A DNA stretch of 63,984 nt, the filler included. It is 6 parts of 6 records of this genome, joined end to end, with 100 filler letters (N's around TTAATTAATTAA, not from the genome) between each part and the next. Parts side by side here need not be neighbours in the genome. Positions count along the whole stretch, not along the records: positions 13,890 to 26,409 come from SRR31147125_12398; 5 more parts are not named here. The stretch is one strand, 5' to 3'. The position numbers were made by a program, and so were the translations under genes. Positions 13,790-55,618 of the stretch are shown one piece after another. How positions within the stretch are numbered: position 1 is the first letter of the stretch; the number at the start of each line of letters is the position of its first letter. Below the pieces are notes generated by a model, which was not told the DNA's origin, made no database searches, and saw only the letters and a program-made list of their open reading frames with translations.

Positions 13790-13889
13790 NNNNNNNNNNN
13801 NNNNNNNNNNNNNNNNNNNNNNNNNNNNNNNNNTTAATTAATTAANNNNNNNNNNNNNNNNNNNNNNNNNNNNNNNNNNNNNNNNNNNN
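13790..13889. other. Artificial contig spacer
   Basis: N-run with central TTAATTAATTAA; composition and gene content change abruptly across it. Confidence 0.98.
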
Positions 13890-15544: not shown

Positions 15545-17197
15545 TTAAGCAGGCTGTGCTGCTGGTGCTGGAAGTTGTGGCTGTGCTGACGCACCCTGAC
15601 CACCCTGACCACCTTGAGGAATCATCTTCCCGATAAGTCCTGCTGCCGGCCCTGCCATTTTATTCATCATCTCCATCTCCTGAGCTTTCTGCATCTGTTC
15701 TTTTGCTTCTGCCTCCATCTGCTCATATTCCTCATCAGTAAGGAGGAAATCGTCATTCTCCAGCTGGAGAGCTGCTTGCATCATACGGAGAAGTTTGAGT
15801 GGTTTGATAAATTTGAGCATTGCATCCTTGCCGACCATCTTCTCACCCAGCTCAGCAAACTCGACAATCTTCTGCAAGTCCTGCCCTCTGCCGAGTGCTT
15901 CCAACCCGGTCACGATAGTAGTCTCGACCGTTCCCTCCGGCAGTCTATCAAGCTTCCCCAGAGCAATCATACGTTGTTCCAGCAGCCCGACCACCTGCGG
16001 CTGTAGCTCTGAGGCAAAGATTGCATAGACATTACCGATCTGCTCCTCCAGTGCCTGAATCATCATGCGAATTTCATACGAAGTAACCCGCTCACCCTTG
16101 CGCTGCACAGCGCTCCGCATCAGAAACGCCCGCTGCATCTTCTCTTCAAGAGCCGCAATCATCCTCTCAGCCACGCCGTAGTCAGCCCCTTTGTCAGCCC
16201 GGAGCATAGTCACGTCATTATGCAGATCACCGGGAATATACGACCCGTTCTTGGCTCTGACAAGATCACGCCGCTTGGTAGTGCCTCCCGGCTTGACTCC
16301 CATAATAGACAAGGACGCAATCTCTGCGCCCTCGGTTACCGCTCTCGTTAAAATATCAAGGACAATCAGCCCCCCGAGAATATCCTCGACATAGCCACGC
16401 CCCCAGTCCTCACCGTCAAGATGCGACCAACGAACCGGAACATACGGACACTTCTTAAACTTAGCCCATTTCCCGATCTTCTCCCTGCCGATACCATGCT
16501 CAGGCAAGACAACACCGTTGATCTCCTGCTTGACCGTCCAGAACTTGGTCTCACTGTCAAACTCAACGCTGGTATAGAGAGTCGCCTTTTTGTTGATATC
16601 TGTATCAGACTTATCATCTAGCAAACCACAATAAGCCAAGACCACATCATCAAGCATCGAGAGCAATAAATCCTCATTGATAATAACTTGCAGCAGCTCA
16701 CCTGCTGGAGTCCGACGCACAACATATCTATCCATACAGTAATACCGCAGGGGCTCGTCGGTCGGAGGAATATACATCAGCACATTACCACCGATTATCG
16801 AATGCTCACAGACCTTTCCCGTAATCACCCGCATCTTGATAGTCTCGCAGTACCGACGAATCTTTTTCTCACGCTCGGAGAGCATGACCTCGACCTTGGT
16901 CAGAGCGTCCTGATCGCTAGCGTTATCTCTGGCATCATCTGTCAGCACATAACGAAACCACGGACTCCCGACTGGAAAGAGGATAGTGTTGAGCCTGCTG
17001 GCAAAGTTATTGATACCCTCCGCCCCGGTTGTCTGGTACGGCACTGGATAGTCGGTACTCCCGTCAGCCCCTTCTGGAGGCATAGCGGTAGGCTTGGTCA
17101 AGACAGAACAGGCTCTTGCTCGGCGGAGAAACGGTTCACGTGAAGCTTTGAGTTTGATAAAATCCCTTGCAATATCGCCTTTATCACTCTTATTCAT
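15545..17197 (-). CDS. T7 gp8-like portal (head-to-tail connector) protein
   Basis: PYQTTGAEGINNFASRL, PWFR, CPYVPVRW..LDGEDWGRG, GERVTSYEIR and TGLEALGRGQDL motifs. Confidence 0.95.
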   Translation of the reverse strand: MNKSDKGDIARDFIKLKASREPFLRRARACSVLTKPTAMPPEGADGSTDYPVPYQTTGAEGINNFASRLNTILFPVGSPWFRYVLTDDARDNASDQDALTKVEVMLSEREKKIRRYCETIKMRVITGKVCEHSIIGGNVLMYIPPTDEPLRYYCMDRYVVRRTPAGELLQVIINEDLLLSMLDDVVLAYCGLLDDKSDTDINKKATLYTSVEFDSETKFWTVKQEINGVVLPEHGIGREKIGKWAKFKKCPYVPVRWSHLDGEDWGRGYVEDILGGLIVLDILTRAVTEGAEIASLSIMGVKPGGTTKRRDLVRAKNGSYIPGDLHNDVTMLRADKGADYGVAERMIAALEEKMQRAFLMRSAVQRKGERVTSYEIRMMIQALEEQIGNVYAIFASELQPQVVGLLEQRMIALGKLDRLPEGTVETTIVTGLEALGRGQDLQKIVEFAELGEKMVGKDAMLKFIKPLKLLRMMQAALQLENDDFLLTDEEYEQMEAEAKEQMQKAQEMEMMNKMAGPAAGLIGKMIPQGGQGGQGASAQPQLPAPAAQPA

Positions 17198-17206
17198 TGC
17201 CCCTCC

Positions 17207-17458
17207 TTAACTGAACAGGTTGAGACCTGTCTTCTTGGCTGTACCGCCAGTGCTGCCAGTACCGAGACCTAGAGGGTCGGATTTATCAATTCTGAGTGCA
17301 TCCTTACCTGACTTTTTCTTACTGTCATTATCATTGGTTACCAGATCGTCCTCCTCTTTCAGCTCAACTGCTTTCGCCGTCACAGGTGCTGGTGTCACTG
17401 GTGCTTGATAGATAGGAGCCGGTGTATCGCCGCCTCCACCTCCAAATAATCCGCACAT
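17207..17458 (-). CDS. T7 gp6.7-like small virion protein
   Basis: MC start, PAP motif and SGKDALRIDK resemble gp6.7; lies just upstream of the portal. Confidence 0.55.
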   Translation of the reverse strand: MCGLFGGGGGDTPAPIYQAPVTPAPVTAKAVELKEEDDLVTNDNDSKKKSGKDALRIDKSDPLGLGTGSTGGTAKKTGLNLFS

Positions 17459-17764
17459 TCACTCACCCTCCCCACTATACTTCGCCTTAAGTTCACCAAT
17501 CAGCTTCCGCCTACCGAGATATGCATAGAACTCCCACTCAGTCTCGCCAGTATGCCGCATACGCTCTGGATTATCCTTGTCAAGCTGCGCAACCAGCTCA
17601 CAGGCAAAATCCGGCATTTTATCCTCAGCAATCTCTGCCGGCGCTGTCTGCTCTGCCAGAAGAGTCTTCACCAGAGAACCGAGCTGATTCTCTACCGACT
17701 TCCCCAGCCCATCATTCTTGAGCTGACCCAGCGCATACTCAACAGCGCTTTGATTTTCGCTCAT
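17459..17764 (-). CDS. Phage hypothetical protein, first gene of the structural module
   Basis: 101-aa ORF with RBS AAGGAG; abuts the next gene. Confidence 0.7.
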   Translation of the reverse strand: MSENQSAVEYALGQLKNDGLGKSVENQLGSLVKTLLAEQTAPAEIAEDKMPDFACELVAQLDKDNPERMRHTGETEWEFYAYLGRRKLIGELKAKYSGEGE

Positions 17765-17815
17765 ATAATCTCCTTATCTAATACCTTTTATAAAAGACAA
17801 AACCGCTTCCGTCCT

Positions 17816-17861
17816 TCCCGTATTGAGCGGATAGACAAGTTGTACTATATTGAGCGGAATT
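17816..17861 (-). promoter_or_regulatory. Candidate phage-RNAP late promoter(s), tandem
   Basis: Minus-strand AATTCCGCTCAATATAG matches 13/17 positions of T7 AATACGACTCACTATAG. The core TCCGCTCAATA is repeated 27 bp downstream and followed by CGGGAAGG. Confidence 0.6.
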
Positions 17862-17911
17862 CATGAAACATTTGTTTTAATGAAAATTCATCAGTAATTT
17901 CACTAAAGGTA

Positions 17912-17939
17912 TTGACAAGTCAAAAGAAAAGGTTAATAT
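17912..17939 (+). promoter_or_regulatory. Candidate sigma70 promoter of the AT-rich cassette
   Basis: TTGACA-16nt-TAATAT. Confidence 0.5.
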
Positions 17940-18074
17940 GCATTAAATGATTTGATTTTTTAATTATATCTAAAGACTATAAATCCAAGTACCGATAAAC
18001 AATTATCGACACTTAGGTTATTTTTTTATGTGTGATAATTATATATAAATAAAATATAAAAATTTCGAAAAAAG

Positions 18075-18103
18075 TTGACTATTACAATAAAAGTTGATAT
18101 TAT
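18075..18103 (+). promoter_or_regulatory. Candidate sigma70 promoter of the AT-rich cassette
   Basis: TTGACT-17nt-TATTAT with a TGn extended -10. Confidence 0.6.
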
Positions 18104-18201
18104 AAATTTATTACTTGTTTCTAAAAAAGTCATTCTTATACACAATAAATAAGTAGAAGAAGATTTACACGAGATACCATTCGTGTATTGGAGATATAAA
18201 T

Positions 18202-18420
18202 ATGCTAGAGTCACTTAAAAACAGAATCCTAGAAAGAAGAAATTTGCCTGAAACTCATGCTCAAAAACCAATTTTTGAGATGTTATCTTCTCTCAGTTCA
18301 AGACCTAAATTCATCTCAAAATCTCCAATTATTGGAAGAGGGAACATCTTCTGTAAAAATCATACTATTTCTGAAGAGCAAGTAAATTCTGACTTTGCTA
18401 AAGCAGCAAAAGGCTTTTAA
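18202..18420 (+). CDS. Small basic hypothetical protein (72 aa), cassette gene 1
   Basis: RBS GGAG upstream; contains PIIGRGN...TISEEQVNSDF. Confidence 0.7.
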   Translation: MLESLKNRILERRNLPETHAQKPIFEMLSSLSSRPKFISKSPIIGRGNIFCKNHTISEEQVNSDFAKAAKGF

Positions 18421-18444
18421 TGCAGGCAAAGGCAACATATAGTA

Positions 18445-19151
18445 ATGGATATTGAAAACGATAAAGATAAAAAGGAATTTTTAAGTTTTACTCAGATGAA
18501 TTTTTTCCCATCTATTCTAAGCTTTCAGCAAACGCCGAGCTAAGTCAAAAAACACTTGAAGAAATTTCTGCTGCTTTTAGTCTTATTGCTGATTATGAAT
18601 TCTACAAATCTAAACCTGTTACAGAGTGCTTTGCATTAAAAATAAATGCTTATGAATATGGGATATCATGTCTTAAGCTAGCTTCTGCACATATGTTGAA
18701 ATACATTGTTATTCCTAAAATAACACTTGCAAAACAATACCTAAAACCAATCTATTCAAAATATTCAAACAAATCAAATAAAGCGCCTAAAGAAGCAAAA
18801 GAACTAATTAAATTATATCCAATTATCAAAAAATATCTTACTAATGAAGAACATTTATTGAAGGAATTAGAGAGCAAAACAAAAAAAGATAATAAAGAGG
18901 AAACAGATTATATTGAGATCAATAAACTAATAGAAAAAAGATACAAAAACATCTTGCATTTAAATAAATCATGTAATATATTTATTAATAGTTATTACTA
19001 TAATCCAGAATCAAAGTATTTATTTAAATTTCCACGTTTACTAAAAAGATTTAAACAAAAACTTAACAATCATACTAAGATTGAATGTATCATAGGAACT
19101 ATAGGGGGGTTAATAATAAGCTTTATTTTTCATTATTACTCAACACGATAA
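18445..19151 (+). CDS. Membrane-anchored helical protein, degenerate paralogue of the next gene; frameshift in T-runs near 18478-18489
   Basis: The frame of ORF 18693-19151 is open back to 18471 and ATG 18445 is one base out of frame. C-terminal hydrophobic helix IECIIGTIGGLIISFIFHYY. Confidence 0.65.
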
Positions 19152-19193
19152 CCTTTAAAATAATCTTAGCTCTCAATATGAAATGCAACTCAA

Positions 19194-19826
19194 ATGAATG
19201 AAATAGATAATTTCGAGAAAGTATATGAATTACATAATACAATAAAACTTGTAATAGATGAAGTACATGAAACTCTAAACTACCTGCCTCGTGAATGCCT
19301 TACAGAAATTCATTCTTGTCTATCACATTTAGCTAGACACCACAATGATCCTAAAAGCGATTCAGAAAAGCAAGCAAGTAAAAAAGCTGGCTCTCACCTC
19401 AAAAGATGTGCTTATGATCTTTATAAGATCATAAGCAGAGATACCATTGATAAGTTTAAACAACTTGAAAATAATGACATACAATATATTCTATCTGAAA
19501 GTAAATTTAACGAATTTCGAAAATTAAAAGACTCCATTATCAATAAAACTATTATTGCAAGAAAAGAAGAAGGACGTAGTTCTGAAAATTGGAAAAAAGC
19601 ATTTGATAAATGGGATGAAGTATTTATTGATTGCCAAAAAGCCAGAAATAATTATTTTACCAACAAAGAACTAAACAATAAAATGGACTTCGTTGATTCC
19701 ACTGAAAAACTAATCTTCAAAAAAAATTCTTGGGTAAATATAATAATAAGCCTAATAATAACAGTTATCACTGGTGCTGTTGTATATTTTTTTGGAACTA
19801 CAATAATAAAAATCATCACCCCATAA
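19194..19826 (+). CDS. Membrane-anchored helical protein with ExxxxxxHxxR and HxxRxxxD motifs
   Basis: TEIHSCLSHLAR and SHLKRCAYDLYK; C-terminal TM helix WVNIIISLIITVITGAVVYFFG. Confidence 0.8.
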   Translation: MNEIDNFEKVYELHNTIKLVIDEVHETLNYLPRECLTEIHSCLSHLARHHNDPKSDSEKQASKKAGSHLKRCAYDLYKIISRDTIDKFKQLENNDIQYILSESKFNEFRKLKDSIINKTIIARKEEGRSSENWKKAFDKWDEVFIDCQKARNNYFTNKELNNKMDFVDSTEKLIFKKNSWVNIIISLIITVITGAVVYFFGTTIIKIITP

Positions 19827-19847
19827 ACCAATAAACACAATAAATTA

Positions 19848-22562
19848 TCAACTAAAGATATACTCCGACTCCAACGCCTGCCGGACATCCAACTCACCCA
19901 TCTCTGGAACTTCCGGCAGCAGCATCCGTTGAGCCTCAGTCAAAGACTTAGAAACGTAATTCCTTAATTCTGTCAACTGGCAGGTACTGTATATCCTCAC
20001 AAACTCCTCCCTGAGAACCTTTGCCAGCAAGCCCGATCTGCTCGGTAATGTGCCGTAACTGTCATGAATCAGGCTGAGTGGCGCATTCCCCATCCGCAGA
20101 ACCACCATCCAGAGCATAGCAGCATCAAAAGAATGGGTGTAATTGGCTGCCATACCGGAGCGGATTTTCTTCTTATTGACCCGTCCGGTATCGGCGGTAA
20201 AGCTGGTCTGGATACGGTGAGAACCGACCACGGTATTTATCCGCATTACCTCGGTACACTCCTTCCGGTGCTGCACAGGAAAACCGAGCGGAGTCTGCCA
20301 CTCCATTCCCGAAACCCCAGTCTTACAAAAACAGCTCAACCGCCGTTCCTTCCGCTGGGATTCGGTCTTGAACTCACAGATACACCGGCAGAGCGATTGC
20401 CCGCATTTCTCACACCGTGAACACTTCGGTCTGATCGTCACCACGTCAGCGACATCCTTGAGCCAGTCGAGATAAACAAAAGCACCCGGAATAATGCTCA
20501 GAGTCGCCCGGTGGACAATCGGCTCAAGAAACATACTAGCCCGCCAACGCAAATCCTCAGTCAAGCAGTATTCAGCTCCCAACTTCTCAATATTCTTGAC
20601 AATAGCATCAGATATCTGCTCCTTACGGGTAAAACTACTGACATCATAGGTACAGGTCATTACTGGTCTCTTGGTCATACTCCGGTCGATCTGCCCGGCA
20701 AGCAGTCTGGAAAAGAGTGTCTGTTCAACCTTATTCCTCATCTCTGTCCAGTACTTGGTATCCTTCTCGTTCTTGTCGGAAATCCGCTTCCCGATCTCCG
20801 CCTCCAACTCTATAAGGTCTGCCGTATTCATGTCAGAATACAGCCCCAGTTTATCCGCGCTCTCCACCCAGTGAGCCAGCTCTTCATTCGCCCTGTCAGC
20901 AATATCCTGATAGAGATCATGGAGTCCAGGACTCTCCGCATCGTTGACAACCGAAGTCCTGACCGCAAGGTCTCTGTCCTTGAGCATCCCTGCTACATGC
21001 TGCAACGCATTCTGACAGCCATCCTGAGGTATACTAATATGACAGATATGCTCCTCACCGTTCTCCAACGCTCCAGCGACCTCGAAGCAGAACGCCAAAA
21101 ACTGCCACGGTTTATCTGCACCTGTCCAGAAATTCCGGTTCTCACTCCGGTACGGGTCTGCCGCACACTCTGCCATAATTGCTGCATGCTCCTCCGCCCA
21201 GACAATCCGTTCCTCCCGGCTGACCTTATCAATCCCGTAGACACTCGCCGCACCGTACAGCAGCCAGTCAATCCCCTCCGAGCTACCAAGGGGCTCGCCG
21301 TGAGCAAACTCCAGCATAGCCTTACTGATATCATCACCTTGAGGAGAGAGAAAGCGACCGCCATAGACCGGATATCCCTGACCTCTGGTGTCGACTGCGT
21401 ACCCGAAGTACAGCTCATCCTCATAATAATACTTCTCAGCCGTGGTGAGAACTCCCTGTAAATGGCTATAACGTGAGATCATTTCACTACGAAGCTTCTG
21501 CGCCTGCTGGAATGCTGCAGTATTGGGTGAGAGCTTACGCAGACTCGGCAGTTCAGCAGTATCGATAATCGGCAACGCCCATTTCTTACCACCACCAAGA
21601 CGGGTACACTCTTTGACGACCTCGCAAAGATTCTGATTGACCCTCCACGCCGTCCTCTGCGCCCTGTTGACCGCCGCAAACATCTGCGGATACTCTCCCT
21701 TCCGTTCCTCCATCTGCCGCAAATACGACCTATTCCACGACCTGATAAAACGGGTACGCTTGCGCAGCTCCGCTGTCTGGTAGACCCCTCCGGAAATACC
21801 CTTCCAGTCTACCGGCGGTACGATACTCGGTGGATACTGCGGTGCAAAGAGTGAGCGCAGCTCCTCCCGGCGGTTTGATTCTTCCATAAATTCTAGTGTG
21901 ATCTGCAGCCGGTGTGAAGTATGTCTCTTCGAGGCTGGCTTGAATGGTATGCGTTCAATCCACTTCGCAGAAACCTGACTCGCCATATGCAGCAGCATCA
22001 GCCCTGCCTTGACCTTCTCTTTATAGGAGAGAGTCTGCGGATTTATCTGGTCTTTGTACCAGCGTTCAAGGAATGATTTCTTGACCTTCTTCTTCTGGAA
22101 CTCACTCGGCGCACGTCTCATTCGCCGTTCCATTGCTTCAAAAGCCCCAGACTCATACTCCTTGAGAGAGTTGGCGTTGAACTGGTCGAGCAGATCGTCA
22201 CCAAGCATATTTGCACGCTTGGCGAGATTGTCCCCAGCGAGAGCGCCGTCGATAAGATTTTTGGCTGTGATAAAGGCTGTGATGTCGGCAGGCAGCTGAG
22301 CGATAAAACGGGTACAGAGCGCCAACCTCCCCGTTCTGTGCCTTTCAATCTCTGCCAGAATCCGTTCATGGAGAGGAGTAACTATCGAATAGATAAAGTC
22401 ACGCCCTGTACCTGTATTGCTGCCGTGTCCGTTCTTCTTGAGTCGCCGCAGATTACTGAAATACTCCAGCTGAGTCACCCCTATCGCTTCCAGCTCCAGC
22501 TCCCGCTGACGACTATATTTCTCTGCCCCGGTCTCCTGAGCAGTCAGTACTTCTGTTGTCAT
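19848..22562 (-). CDS. T7-like single-subunit DNA-directed RNA polymerase
   Basis: PPVDW, SPQGDDISKAML, YGIDKVS..ER, ADKPWQFLAFCFE; motif A DGCQNALQH, motif B RSMTKRPVMT, WQTPLGFPV, motif C IHDSYGT; C-terminal YIFS. Confidence 0.97.
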   Translation of the reverse strand: MTTEVLTAQETGAEKYSRQRELELEAIGVTQLEYFSNLRRLKKNGHGSNTGTGRDFIYSIVTPLHERILAEIERHRTGRLALCTRFIAQLPADITAFITAKNLIDGALAGDNLAKRANMLGDDLLDQFNANSLKEYESGAFEAMERRMRRAPSEFQKKKVKKSFLERWYKDQINPQTLSYKEKVKAGLMLLHMASQVSAKWIERIPFKPASKRHTSHRLQITLEFMEESNRREELRSLFAPQYPPSIVPPVDWKGISGGVYQTAELRKRTRFIRSWNRSYLRQMEERKGEYPQMFAAVNRAQRTAWRVNQNLCEVVKECTRLGGGKKWALPIIDTAELPSLRKLSPNTAAFQQAQKLRSEMISRYSHLQGVLTTAEKYYYEDELYFGYAVDTRGQGYPVYGGRFLSPQGDDISKAMLEFAHGEPLGSSEGIDWLLYGAASVYGIDKVSREERIVWAEEHAAIMAECAADPYRSENRNFWTGADKPWQFLAFCFEVAGALENGEEHICHISIPQDGCQNALQHVAGMLKDRDLAVRTSVVNDAESPGLHDLYQDIADRANEELAHWVESADKLGLYSDMNTADLIELEAEIGKRISDKNEKDTKYWTEMRNKVEQTLFSRLLAGQIDRSMTKRPVMTCTYDVSSFTRKEQISDAIVKNIEKLGAEYCLTEDLRWRASMFLEPIVHRATLSIIPGAFVYLDWLKDVADVVTIRPKCSRCEKCGQSLCRCICEFKTESQRKERRLSCFCKTGVSGMEWQTPLGFPVQHRKECTEVMRINTVVGSHRIQTSFTADTGRVNKKKIRSGMAANYTHSFDAAMLWMVVLRMGNAPLSLIHDSYGTLPSRSGLLAKVLREEFVRIYSTCQLTELRNYVSKSLTEAQRMLLPEVPEMGELDVRQALESEYIFS

Positions 22563-25280: not shown

Positions 25281-25660
25281 TTACAGTTCCTCCAGTATTA
25301 CCTCAACCTTGCCACCCTCAACAACCTCGCACATTGTCGCATCGATATGTTTGATCTGGCTATCATCAACATAAAACTCAGCTTTCATCATCGCATCGAG
25401 CAGACACTTAAAAACATTGTCGAGATCTCGCTTACCATTCTTTGGCGGATACAAGTGAATTTTGTTTTGATTGTCCCTGTCAGTGGCAACTCGACCTTAT
25501 TCTCCTGCGGTGTCACCTTATACTTGATAGCCTCCAGCTTGACCGCCTTGCGGTACTGCATTACCTTTGACTTAAGAAACATTCCACCGCTCTTACTTCG
25601 ACCGTAATAGTTATTGACACTCAGCGGATACGGCAATGTCAGTTTTAATACTTTACTCAA
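25281..25660 (-). CDS. rusA: RusA-family Holliday junction resolvase, frameshifted near 25460
   Basis: N-terminus LPYPLSVNNYY; the alternative frame continues IHLYPPKNGKRDLDNVFKCLLDAM...DDSQI...GKVEV, the RusA catalytic motif. Confidence 0.88.
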
Positions 25661-26409: not shown

Positions 26410-26509
26410 NNNNNNNNNNNNNNNNNNNNNNNNNNNNNNNNNNNNNNNNNNNNTTAATTAATTAANNNNNNNNNNNNNNNNNNNNNNNNNNNNNNNNNNN
26501 NNNNNNNNN
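26410..26509. other. Artificial contig spacer
   Basis: N-run with TTAATTAATTAA. Confidence 0.98.
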
Positions 26510-32880: not shown

Positions 32881-32980
32881 NNNNNNNNNNNNNNNNNNNN
32901 NNNNNNNNNNNNNNNNNNNNNNNNTTAATTAATTAANNNNNNNNNNNNNNNNNNNNNNNNNNNNNNNNNNNNNNNNNNNN
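32881..32980. other. Artificial contig spacer
   Basis: N-run with TTAATTAATTAA. Confidence 0.98.
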
Positions 32981-38526: not shown

Positions 38527-38626
38527 NNNNNNNNNNNNNNNNNNNNNNNNNNNNNNNNNNNNNNNNNNNNTTAATTAATTAANNNNNNNNNNNNNNNNNN
38601 NNNNNNNNNNNNNNNNNNNNNNNNNN
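38527..38626. other. Artificial contig spacer
   Basis: N-run with TTAATTAATTAA. Confidence 0.98.
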
Positions 38627-55518: not shown

Positions 55519-55618
55519 NNNNNNNNNNNNNNNNNNNNNNNNNNNNNNNNNNNNNNNNNNNNTTAATTAATTAANNNNNNNNNNNNNNNNNNNNNNNNNN
55601 NNNNNNNNNNNNNNNNNN
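55519..55618. other. Artificial contig spacer
   Basis: N-run with TTAATTAATTAA. Confidence 0.98.

Follow-up and report, generated by a model that had tools for sequence, protein, structure and literature searches.

T7-like phages are usually thought of as lytic and streamlined, and cargo oriented against the phage genes is unusual in them. Here, we describe such cargo: a cassette of three open reading frames (ORF1, ORF2 and ORF3) in an AT-rich slot at 17765-19847 of a T7-like phage contig, between the gene for a single-subunit RNA polymerase (RNAP) and the structural module. The contig is one of six that make up the 63,984-nucleotide stretch of DNA analyzed (hereafter, the window), and positions are those of the window unless a locus is named. 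We consider it very probable that the anatomy described below is correct and that a conserved two-gene module, carried as a moron, underlies the cassette.

Phage lambda carries, as a prophage, the two-gene exclusion system RexA/RexB, with one soluble and one inner-membrane component. The module likewise appears to be a prophage-borne pair of a soluble and a membrane protein, and by analogy a mechanism of this kind may be the most likely one for it. It differs from RexA/RexB in that no sequence similarity was found in any library and in that the membrane protein has a single C-terminal anchor, a large domain predicted to be cytoplasmic and a soluble partner of only ca. 70 amino acids (aa), whereas RexB has several membrane helices and RexA is the larger of the two proteins. 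Type II toxin-antitoxin (TA) systems share with the module tightly spaced or overlapping genes (0-10 nucleotides at six loci), a patchy, mobile spread and TA genes as neighbours, but none of ORF1, ORF2 and ORF3 belongs to a Pfam or NCBIfam toxin or antitoxin family. By sequence criteria, the module appears to be a member of neither group.

Morons are, in the excerpt of PMC6469090 used for this comparison, genes "acquired horizontally and transcribed independently". The cassette resembles the morons of temperate phages in that it lies between genes that are adjacent in relatives, has a foreign composition and its own promoter-like sites, and is absent from the closest relatives; it differs in lacking a terminator-like site, in being carried by a T7-like phage and in that its expression in the lysogen is presumed. 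By position and composition, the cassette is a moron. Temperate T7-like phages have also been described: the excerpted reports on LUZ100 (PMC10134795), on integrating pelagiphages (10.1101/410191) and on cyanophage P-SSP7 (PMC1079782) concern, as does the present case, single-subunit RNAP phage lineages with signs of lysogeny. In contrast to the phages of those excerpts, the nearest relatives of the phage in the window lie in Planctomycetota records, and the RNAP gene directly precedes the structural module. With such temperate members on record among T7-like phages, lysogeny is not in itself a novelty of this lineage.

The cassette and its two protein families

The slot has a guanine-plus-cytosine (GC) content of 27.4%, compared with 47.0% in the rest of the phage contig, 52.1% in the RNAP gene and 51.4% in the portal gene. 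In 500-nucleotide windows over 18001-19500 the value is 26-29%, against 50-54% in the flanks; the first ~100 nucleotides of the leader (17765-17870) are not AT-rich. All credible genes of the phage contig are on the minus strand, the exception being the three cassette ORFs on the plus strand. The longest stop-free run in the slot is 226 codons; in 500 shuffles of the slot it averaged 74 codons and never exceeded 135. Since the stop-free runs of 210 and 226 codons far exceed those of the shuffles, the cassette ORFs exceed chance.

An earlier note on this DNA had described an AT-rich, strand-switched block between the RNAP gene and the structural module of a T7-like phage, with two σ70-like promoters, a 72-aa basic ORF, a frameshift and two helical proteins that each end in one transmembrane helix. 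This anatomy was borne out. The block is the only counter-oriented one on the contig, and Pfam and PHROGs profiles identify both a single-subunit RNAP and a co-oriented T7-type connector/scaffold/capsid module. ORF1 is the basic ORF, the ATG at 18445 and the long frame of ORF2 are in different frames, and ORF2 and ORF3 each have a single, C-terminal hydrophobic stretch.

Two σ70-like sites are present at the positions given in the note, TTGACA-16-TAATAT at 17912-17939 (10/12) and TTGACT-17-TATTAT with a TG element at 18075-18103 (10/12). Over 17400-20100, 15 promoter-like sites were found versus 11.8 ± 3.4 in shuffles, which is not above expectation, and two plus-strand 10/12 sites arise in a leader of 437 nucleotides in 4% of 2000 first-order Markov simulations, a mild enrichment (P of 0.04 for two or more). 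Also in the leader are a palindrome of 14 pairs (17985-18016) and a hairpin of 7 pairs (18166-18187), the latter immediately ahead of the GGAG and the ATG start codon of ORF1. A search of Rfam with 17400-20000 gave no match. Flanking repeats that could mark an insertion mechanism were sought, and only weak, 72%-identical 32-mers were found; by Pfam, the cassette has no integrase, transposase or homing-endonuclease domain.

An exact 10-nucleotide direct repeat (17822-17831 and 17849-17858, 27 nucleotides apart) lies in the leader upstream of the 101-aa gene that borders the slot, on whose strand it reads TCCGCTCAAT; this sequence occurs nowhere else in the window. It probably belongs to that minus-strand phage gene, and could act as an operator or form part of a promoter from which the phage transcribes its structural genes.

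The sole strongly hydrophobic stretch of ORF3 is C-terminal: Kyte-Doolittle windows of 19 residues exceeding 1.6 start at residues 178-191, with a maximum of 2.45. Searches with ORF3 by tblastn against 50,697 deposited phage records, by a word-based protein search with ORF3 alone, and in scans of viral, metagenome and genome contigs retrieved nothing. A six-frame HMMER search with ORF3 through 301 Planctomycetota genomes retrieved two genes (E values of 8e-17 and 6e-11), and the phrog_9168 profile retrieved one Bacteroidota member, in locus L033 (E 1.2e-7). A profile made from four sequences found 114 protein clusters (best E 1e-76), mostly of 188-201 aa, none of which has a Pfam domain and all of whose given names are "hypothetical"; their source names include Planctomycetota, Treponema, Chlorobium, Bacteroidia, Paludibacteraceae and Desulfogranum. 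Nine residues are invariant in 48 aligned sequences of this family (alignment A3), namely E38, H45, L46, A65, H68, R71, D75, K78 and E126 in ORF3 numbering, and a single hydrophobic helix closes each of the sequences shown. ORF3, with all nine residues and the C-terminal helix, is a canonical member. It also resembles phrog_9168, a profile of unknown function, whose C-terminal half (positions 128-256 of 267) matches residues 17-143 of the ORF3 helical domain (E 1.8e-10); the profile is covered in part, and the membrane anchor of ORF3 lies outside the match.

The family is rare. Searches found copies in 4 of 401 Bacteroidota genomes (a single one intact, one truncated by a contig end and two degraded), in 3 of 401 Planctomycetota genomes, with two copies in one of the three, and on one IMG/VR contig (L052). 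With a typical member, P0044, tblastn found nothing in the same phage records or in plasmids. By Pfam, the A3 family has no match, including none of the DUF883 type, and its profile had no match at E ≤ 1 among Protein Data Bank (PDB) sequences. AlphaFold2 models made without an alignment are all-helical for both large proteins and too uncertain to use (predicted local distance difference test scores, pLDDT, of 50.3 for ORF3 and 58.5 for ORF2). Foldseek found no match at E ≤ 0.001 for them in BFVD or the PDB, which is uninformative given such low-pLDDT models, and the ESM Atlas returned only unnamed clusters of "hypothetical protein", one with 1,334 members.

ORF1 belongs to a second family, whose members share the core P-[LI]-I-G-R-G-[NS]-[VI] with R46 and G47 invariant in 32 sequences (alignment A5). 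The core of ORF1 is PIIGRGNI, and ORF1 scores 23.2 bits (E 2.7e-6) against a profile of the 31 other members, compared with 6.2 bits for the best of 1000 shuffles. With ORF1 as a query, tblastn matched the ORF that immediately precedes the large gene in L039 (E 0.002) and L040, and reading of the upstream frames revealed the same small protein in L033, L050, L051 and the prophage L052. At these loci, which are those with an intact large gene that were read directly, the ORF3-family gene is immediately preceded by an ORF1 homologue in 6/6 cases (7/7 with the window, where ORF1 has the position typical of the small family and the large gene adjacent to it is ORF2). The spacing between the two genes ranges from an overlap to 10 nucleotides in the six other loci and is 24 nucleotides in the window. 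The small-protein profile retrieved 28 clusters, none with a Pfam domain, and small and large genes have consecutive locus tags in two records, one of Planctomycetota (the L040 locus) and one of Chlorobium. ORF1 has no match in Pfam, NCBIfam or PADLOC, and two other members of its family have no Pfam or NCBIfam family.

Judging by these pairs, the conserved unit is one of two genes, the first for a predicted soluble protein of ~70 aa with an Arg-Gly core and the second for a predicted helical, membrane-anchored protein of ~190-200 aa. The earlier note had proposed a self-contained system of a peptide and two membrane proteins that matches no named family. Co-occurrence of the genes elsewhere, which it had proposed as a check, was found, as the pairing of ORF1 homologues with ORF3-family genes at all six loci attests; the three-gene order occurs nowhere else. 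As to names, none is available in Pfam, NCBIfam or PADLOC, but the genes are not orphans, as each belongs to an unnamed family. Both families appear to be new to Pfam, NCBIfam, PHROGs, PADLOC and PDB sequences, and the word "undescribed" would refer to these libraries, no literature search having been made.

In locus L050 (L050:2070-2558), another gene follows the pair, its start overlapping the preceding stop, and encodes a membrane protein of 162 aa with several helices and without a Pfam family. This protein may be a third component in that lineage.

In ORF2, a run of 32 codons starts from the ATG at 18445; the long frame, 18471-19151, contains 226 codons with a single hydrophobic stretch near the C-terminus (maximum of 1.72, around residue 200 of 222). 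A contig from one public DNA run (X1) carries one more T (T6) at 18478-18482, which brings the ATG at 18445 into frame; at its depth of 2.4 either T5 or T6 may be an error, and the run is possibly the window's own source and so not independent. A phmmer search with ORF2 against 1.84 billion representatives gave 0 matches, tblastn found none in phage records, and there is no match in Pfam, NCBIfam or PADLOC. BLASTP between ORF2 and ORF3 was not significant (E 1.7), and their kinship is visible at the profile level only. Aligned by hhalign with the family profile over its whole length, ORF2 reached a probability of 95.6% and a score of 58.5. Because composition and a hydrophobic tail inflate hhalign scores, shuffled controls were run: the maximum was 43.7 in 60 shuffles that kept the membrane helix, and the soluble part alone scored 38.8 versus 13.8 ± 2.7 (maximum 22.8) in 80 shuffles. 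The similarity is clear in the first ~70 residues. ORF2 keeps E38 and the helix and has L, Y, P, T and D at positions 45, 71, 75, 78 and 126; two alignments disagree at positions 65-69. From these comparisons, the best reading of ORF2 is that an ORF3-type gene was duplicated locally and the copy diverged, so that ORF2 holds the canonical position beside ORF1 without being a canonical member.

Given the broken frame and lost residues of ORF2, one may ask whether the phage fragment is defective or poorly assembled and the cassette no more than decaying cargo without a function. The RusA gene on the same contig, which is split between two overlapping frames, and the degraded copies of the family in other genomes point the same way, and the split RusA gene counts against our own reading of the cassette. 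However, ORF1 and ORF3 are intact, the latter with its full set of invariant residues, the break in ORF2 falls in a homopolymer where the extra T of the public contig restores the frame, and stop-free runs as long as those observed, at 27% GC, lie far beyond the shuffles. We regard decay as quite improbable.

The slot in related prophages

A scan of species-representative genomes for the RNAP returned 31 loci, and the three best (L001-L003, 40-41% identity) lie inside Planctomycetota chromosome records of 3.4-3.9 Mb. All three have the order RNAP, slot, a gene of ~90 aa (followed in two of them by a membrane protein gene), a gene for an ~86-aa MC-GGG protein, and portal; the portal of the window is 35-37% identical to theirs. 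The 101-aa gene on the left border of the slot occupies the same position as its counterparts in the three relatives and shares with them 22-25% identity and 12 invariant columns. Between these borders, the interval after the RNAP gene holds unrelated genes in each of the four phages. The L003 slot is 3.4 kb long and has 24-31% GC in most 250-nucleotide windows (three windows reach 32-38%); its opposite strand carries a staphylococcal-nuclease homologue (PF00565, 8.7e-27) and a 512-aa protein in which pentapeptide repeats accompany a potassium-channel-like membrane domain (PF07885, 3.5e-7); this slot may hold another candidate conflict cargo. The cassette ORFs have no match in any of the 31 RNAP-bearing loci. 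Because slot content differs in all four phages and the cassette ORFs match none of the 31 loci, the site is a hypervariable cargo hotspot downstream of the RNAP gene.

In the L001 slot, the ORF resembling a C5-cytosine methylase is 128 aa long, matches only the C-terminal end of PF00145 and lies beside an N6/N4-methylase-like ORF. The genes of this slot may serve anti-restriction.

The relatives also bear on the integrity of the assembly. The source of the window is a binned metagenome assembly, and public coverage is low: one DNA run (X1) and no RNA run are listed for it, contigs of X1 cover 17300-17437 (depth of 2.5) and 18467-19211 (depth of 2.4-3.8), and no public contig bridges 17870 or 19830. 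On these grounds, the AT-rich block could be a chimeric insertion into a phage contig. A chimera would, however, need two false joins, each exactly intergenic between complete genes that are syntenic in L001-L003, and L003, a chromosome-level record, holds AT-rich, partly counter-oriented cargo in the same slot. The similar depths of the cassette and flank pieces in X1 (2.4-3.8 versus 2.5) argue weakly in the same direction. An assembly artefact is thus hardly credible, and we take the block as genuine cargo of the phage.

A tyrosine integrase gene lies 11.5-14.3 kb upstream of the RNAP start in each of L001-L003. These data are consistent with a temperate lineage whose relatives are integrated near integrases, the assignment of the integrases to the prophages being presumed. 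The earlier note had deduced a temperate or carrier lifestyle from the cassette. That lifestyle fits the three chromosomal relatives, while the cassette itself says nothing about it.

Gene neighbourhoods and possible function

The IMG/VR contig L052 is a second, unrelated prophage that carries the module in the same manner. Here (L052:7944-12293), the pair lies in an AT-rich island (33-43% versus ~52% GC) that adjoins the portal gene and runs counter to a portal and capsid of the lambda family. The pair is 0.5 kb from an AbiU2 gene (PF18734, 5.8e-12), and the island also encodes a DUF2188 protein, a 484-aa protein without a family and a BRO-N protein. The AbiU2 protein was itself considered as a relative of the A3 family and rejected (hhalign probability of 0.5%). 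Family copies are locally AT-rich in L046 and L047 as well as in L052.

Since the module adjoins structural or late genes in both prophages, the window and L052, and since ORF3 has its partial match to phrog_9168, the module might serve the phage's own cycle, for example in lysis timing (holin/antiholin-like), host takeover or counter-defence. We find this improbable. The module runs against the direction of phage transcription; it is absent from the three closest relatives, which argues against a core function; most taxon-named family members come from bacterial records; and neither ORF3 nor the typical member found a tblastn match in the deposited phage records. 

Conflict genes, that is, genes of TA, abortive infection (Abi) or restriction-modification (RM) systems, were found within 6 kb at 5 of the 9 other loci. 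Besides AbiU2 in L052, these are HepT/MntA at 1.3 kb and ParE at 5.4 kb in L045, BrnT/CopG at ~1 kb in L046 (where an ORF also looks transposase-like by eye), ToxN (3.6 kb) and YafQ (6 kb) in L039, and an adjacent TaqI_C specificity protein in L051. The scan used Pfam on 20 neighbouring proteins chosen by eye and has no background rate; L033, L047 and L050 gave little flanking sequence. The conflict-gene neighbourhoods are suggestive. They point to a role in conflict, whether TA-like, in abortive infection or in superinfection exclusion, and on the present sequence comparisons we hold such a function to be possible, with a chance somewhat below even. The explanation of the whole that we prefer, at just under an even chance, is a cargo moron that consists of the two-gene module with a duplicated membrane component and for which a conflict role is the most likely one.

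Several observations weigh against this reading. Four of the nine other loci have no conflict gene, and in L040 the pair sits among housekeeping genes (an ABC ATPase, a DksA-like gene and a panB-like gene, named by eye). The neighbourhood evidence is small and partly hand-picked. Since many genomes abound in TA genes, finding one within 6 kb carries little weight. The promoter-like sites are mildly enriched at most, and the host may not use promoters of this kind; no terminator-like site follows ORF3. ORF2, frame-broken in the assembly and without H45, R71, D75 and K78, may be inactive. With PADLOC-DB 2.0.0, the only match of ORF3 is an unconvincing one to C3a223 (18.9 bits over 36 residues), and among the 48 family members at most two match any one model; summed over models, the weak matches amount to ~5 to PDC-S05 and 3 to PDC-M08B, with E values from 5e-4 to 0.02.

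PDC-S05 is described, in the excerpt of 10.1101/2024.09.26.614923 at hand, as a RhuM-domain protein. Kinship of the A3 family with it was rejected, as the family is not a RhuM-domain one by Pfam.

The earlier note had gone further and called the cassette a candidate defence or exclusion system. That designation was not confirmed: what speaks for it is the gene neighbourhood, and the PADLOC search of the three proteins, which the note had suggested, gave nothing for ORF1 and ORF2 and the single short match for ORF3.

C-tail-anchored helical proteins such as those of the ElaB/YqjD group serve stress physiology. The cassette could likewise be accessory cargo unrelated to conflict, with a membrane-anchored role in stress, ribosome association or signalling, or in lysogenic conversion of the envelope. 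This alternative gains from such proteins, from the housekeeping surroundings of the pair in L040 and from the lack of a defence model that matches the module. It accounts less well for a patchy, rare and cross-phylum spread with degraded copies, for two independent prophage instances in AT-rich islands and for the TA, Abi or RM genes at more than half of the other loci, and the family lacks the DUF883-type Pfam match. We consider this alternative rather unlikely.

The block at 17765-19847 is horizontally acquired cargo that forms one operon opposite to phage transcription. The host polymerase would transcribe it from the operon's own promoter-like sites, hence probably in the lysogen. Because a lysine-rich stretch precedes the membrane helix and there is no signal peptide, the helical domain of ORF3 is predicted to be cytoplasmic and anchored to the inner membrane. 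The tight spacing of their genes in relatives suggests that the small and large proteins act together, and the former may be a partner of the latter or hold it in check. A putative active or binding site would be formed by the invariant E/H/H/R/D/K/E cluster. More tentatively still, comparison of the loci suggests that the pair could be a new, widely scattered two-gene conflict system (of the abortive infection, exclusion or TA type) that unrelated temperate phages carry as lysogen-expressed cargo, that its effector would be the cytoplasmic helical domain tethered to the inner membrane by the C-terminal anchor, and that the T7-like lineage keeps a dedicated slot for such cargo.

If the module is a conflict system, it adds a new pair of protein families to the catalogue of phage-borne defence and exclusion, with neither protein in Pfam, NCBIfam or PADLOC. 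It offers nine invariant residues, a small partner and, in ORF2, a natural degenerate copy for comparison. Should the module turn out to serve ordinary membrane physiology, what remains is a well-documented moron. In the T7-like lineage tied to Planctomycetota prophages, a fixed hypervariable slot follows the RNAP gene, and this slot is useful for finding accessory genes.

The phage contig and its other features

The coordinates of the features are collected in Table 1. The six contigs of the window are joined by spacers of the form N44-TTAATTAATTAA-N44, and the cassette is in the second contig (13890-26409, 12.5 kb), a T7-like phage fragment whose capsid gene is truncated by the contig end. 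The GC content of this contig (47%) differs from that of the other five (35-42%), and its membership of the bin is doubtful for this reason. The bin-mate contigs carry polysaccharide-synthesis genes and, on one contig, a type IX secretion sorting domain.

Table 1. Coordinates of the cassette, its borders, other features of the window and the corresponding slots of related prophages.
Feature	Position	Strand	Description
AT-rich leader	17765..18201	+	two σ70-like sites, palindrome, hairpin before ORF1
ORF1	18202..18420	+	72 aa, pI 9.9, no hydrophobic segment
ORF2	18445..19151	+	~236 aa if read through; frame-broken at T5 run 18478-18482
ORF3	19194..19826	+	210 aa; C-terminal membrane helix ~180-205
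Single-subunit RNAP	19848..22562	-	904 aa, full length; right border of slot
Conserved 101-aa gene	17459..17764	-	left border of slot; counterpart of the 84-95-aa gene before the portal module in L001-L003
83-aa MC-GGG protein	17207-17458	-	start of structural module
Portal / head-to-tail connector	15545-17197	-	PF12236 1.1e-49, phrog_449 1.3e-127
Split RusA-type resolvase	25281-25660	-	two overlapping frames
Spacers	13790-13889, 26410-26509, 32881-32980, 38527-38626, 55519-55618		adjacency across spacers not biological
L001 slot	L001:12738-13982	co-oriented with phage	C5-/N6-methylase-like genes, DUF551; 35-44% GC
L002 slot			two small Cys-rich ORFs
L003 slot	L003:12793-16083	partly counter-oriented	408-aa ORF (no family), nuclease homologue, pentapeptide-repeat/ion-channel protein
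MC(x)GGG proteins of relatives	L001:14551-14814; L002:14045-14305; L003:16842-17120		counterparts of the 83-aa protein

The gene order on the phage contig is early genes, RNAP, cassette (on the plus strand), the 101-aa gene, the 83-aa gene, portal, two scaffold-like genes and the capsid N-terminus. The RNAP matches PF00940 (1e-72), PF14700 (1.1e-9) and phrog_414 (1.9e-161), and its alignment with phage and prophage RNAPs reaches residue 904; its stop is 21 nucleotides from that of the convergent ORF3. In the structural module, all on the minus strand, a head assembly gene (phrog_1052, 7.7e-22) and the capsid N-terminus (phrog_27239, 2.5e-12) were recognized in addition to the portal. Deposited phages are distant, with RNAP identities of 27-28% (maximum 28%) and portal identities of at most 39%. 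Neither the phage fragment nor the cassette has DNA similarity among the 50,697 phage records, and scans of viral and metagenome contigs with the portal gave no match.

The early genes are small and include a dUTPase (PF00692), Lar-like zinc ribbons and the split RusA gene. In the latter, a 57-aa ORF matches only profile positions 78-122 of 124 (E 2.1e-9), while the overlapping 90-aa ORF looks N-terminal-like by eye and has no Pfam match. Low-coverage errors and decay would each account for the split.

Residues ~706-745 of the RNAP form a Cys-rich stretch of ~40 residues with several CxxC-like pairs, which looks like a zinc-binding insertion; we know of no such insertion in T7 RNAP. Directly before the portal, all four phages encode a protein of ~85 aa that begins MC(x)GGG, is rich in Pro, Thr and Gly, appears lipoprotein-like by eye and weakly matches phrog_1391, a profile of unknown function.

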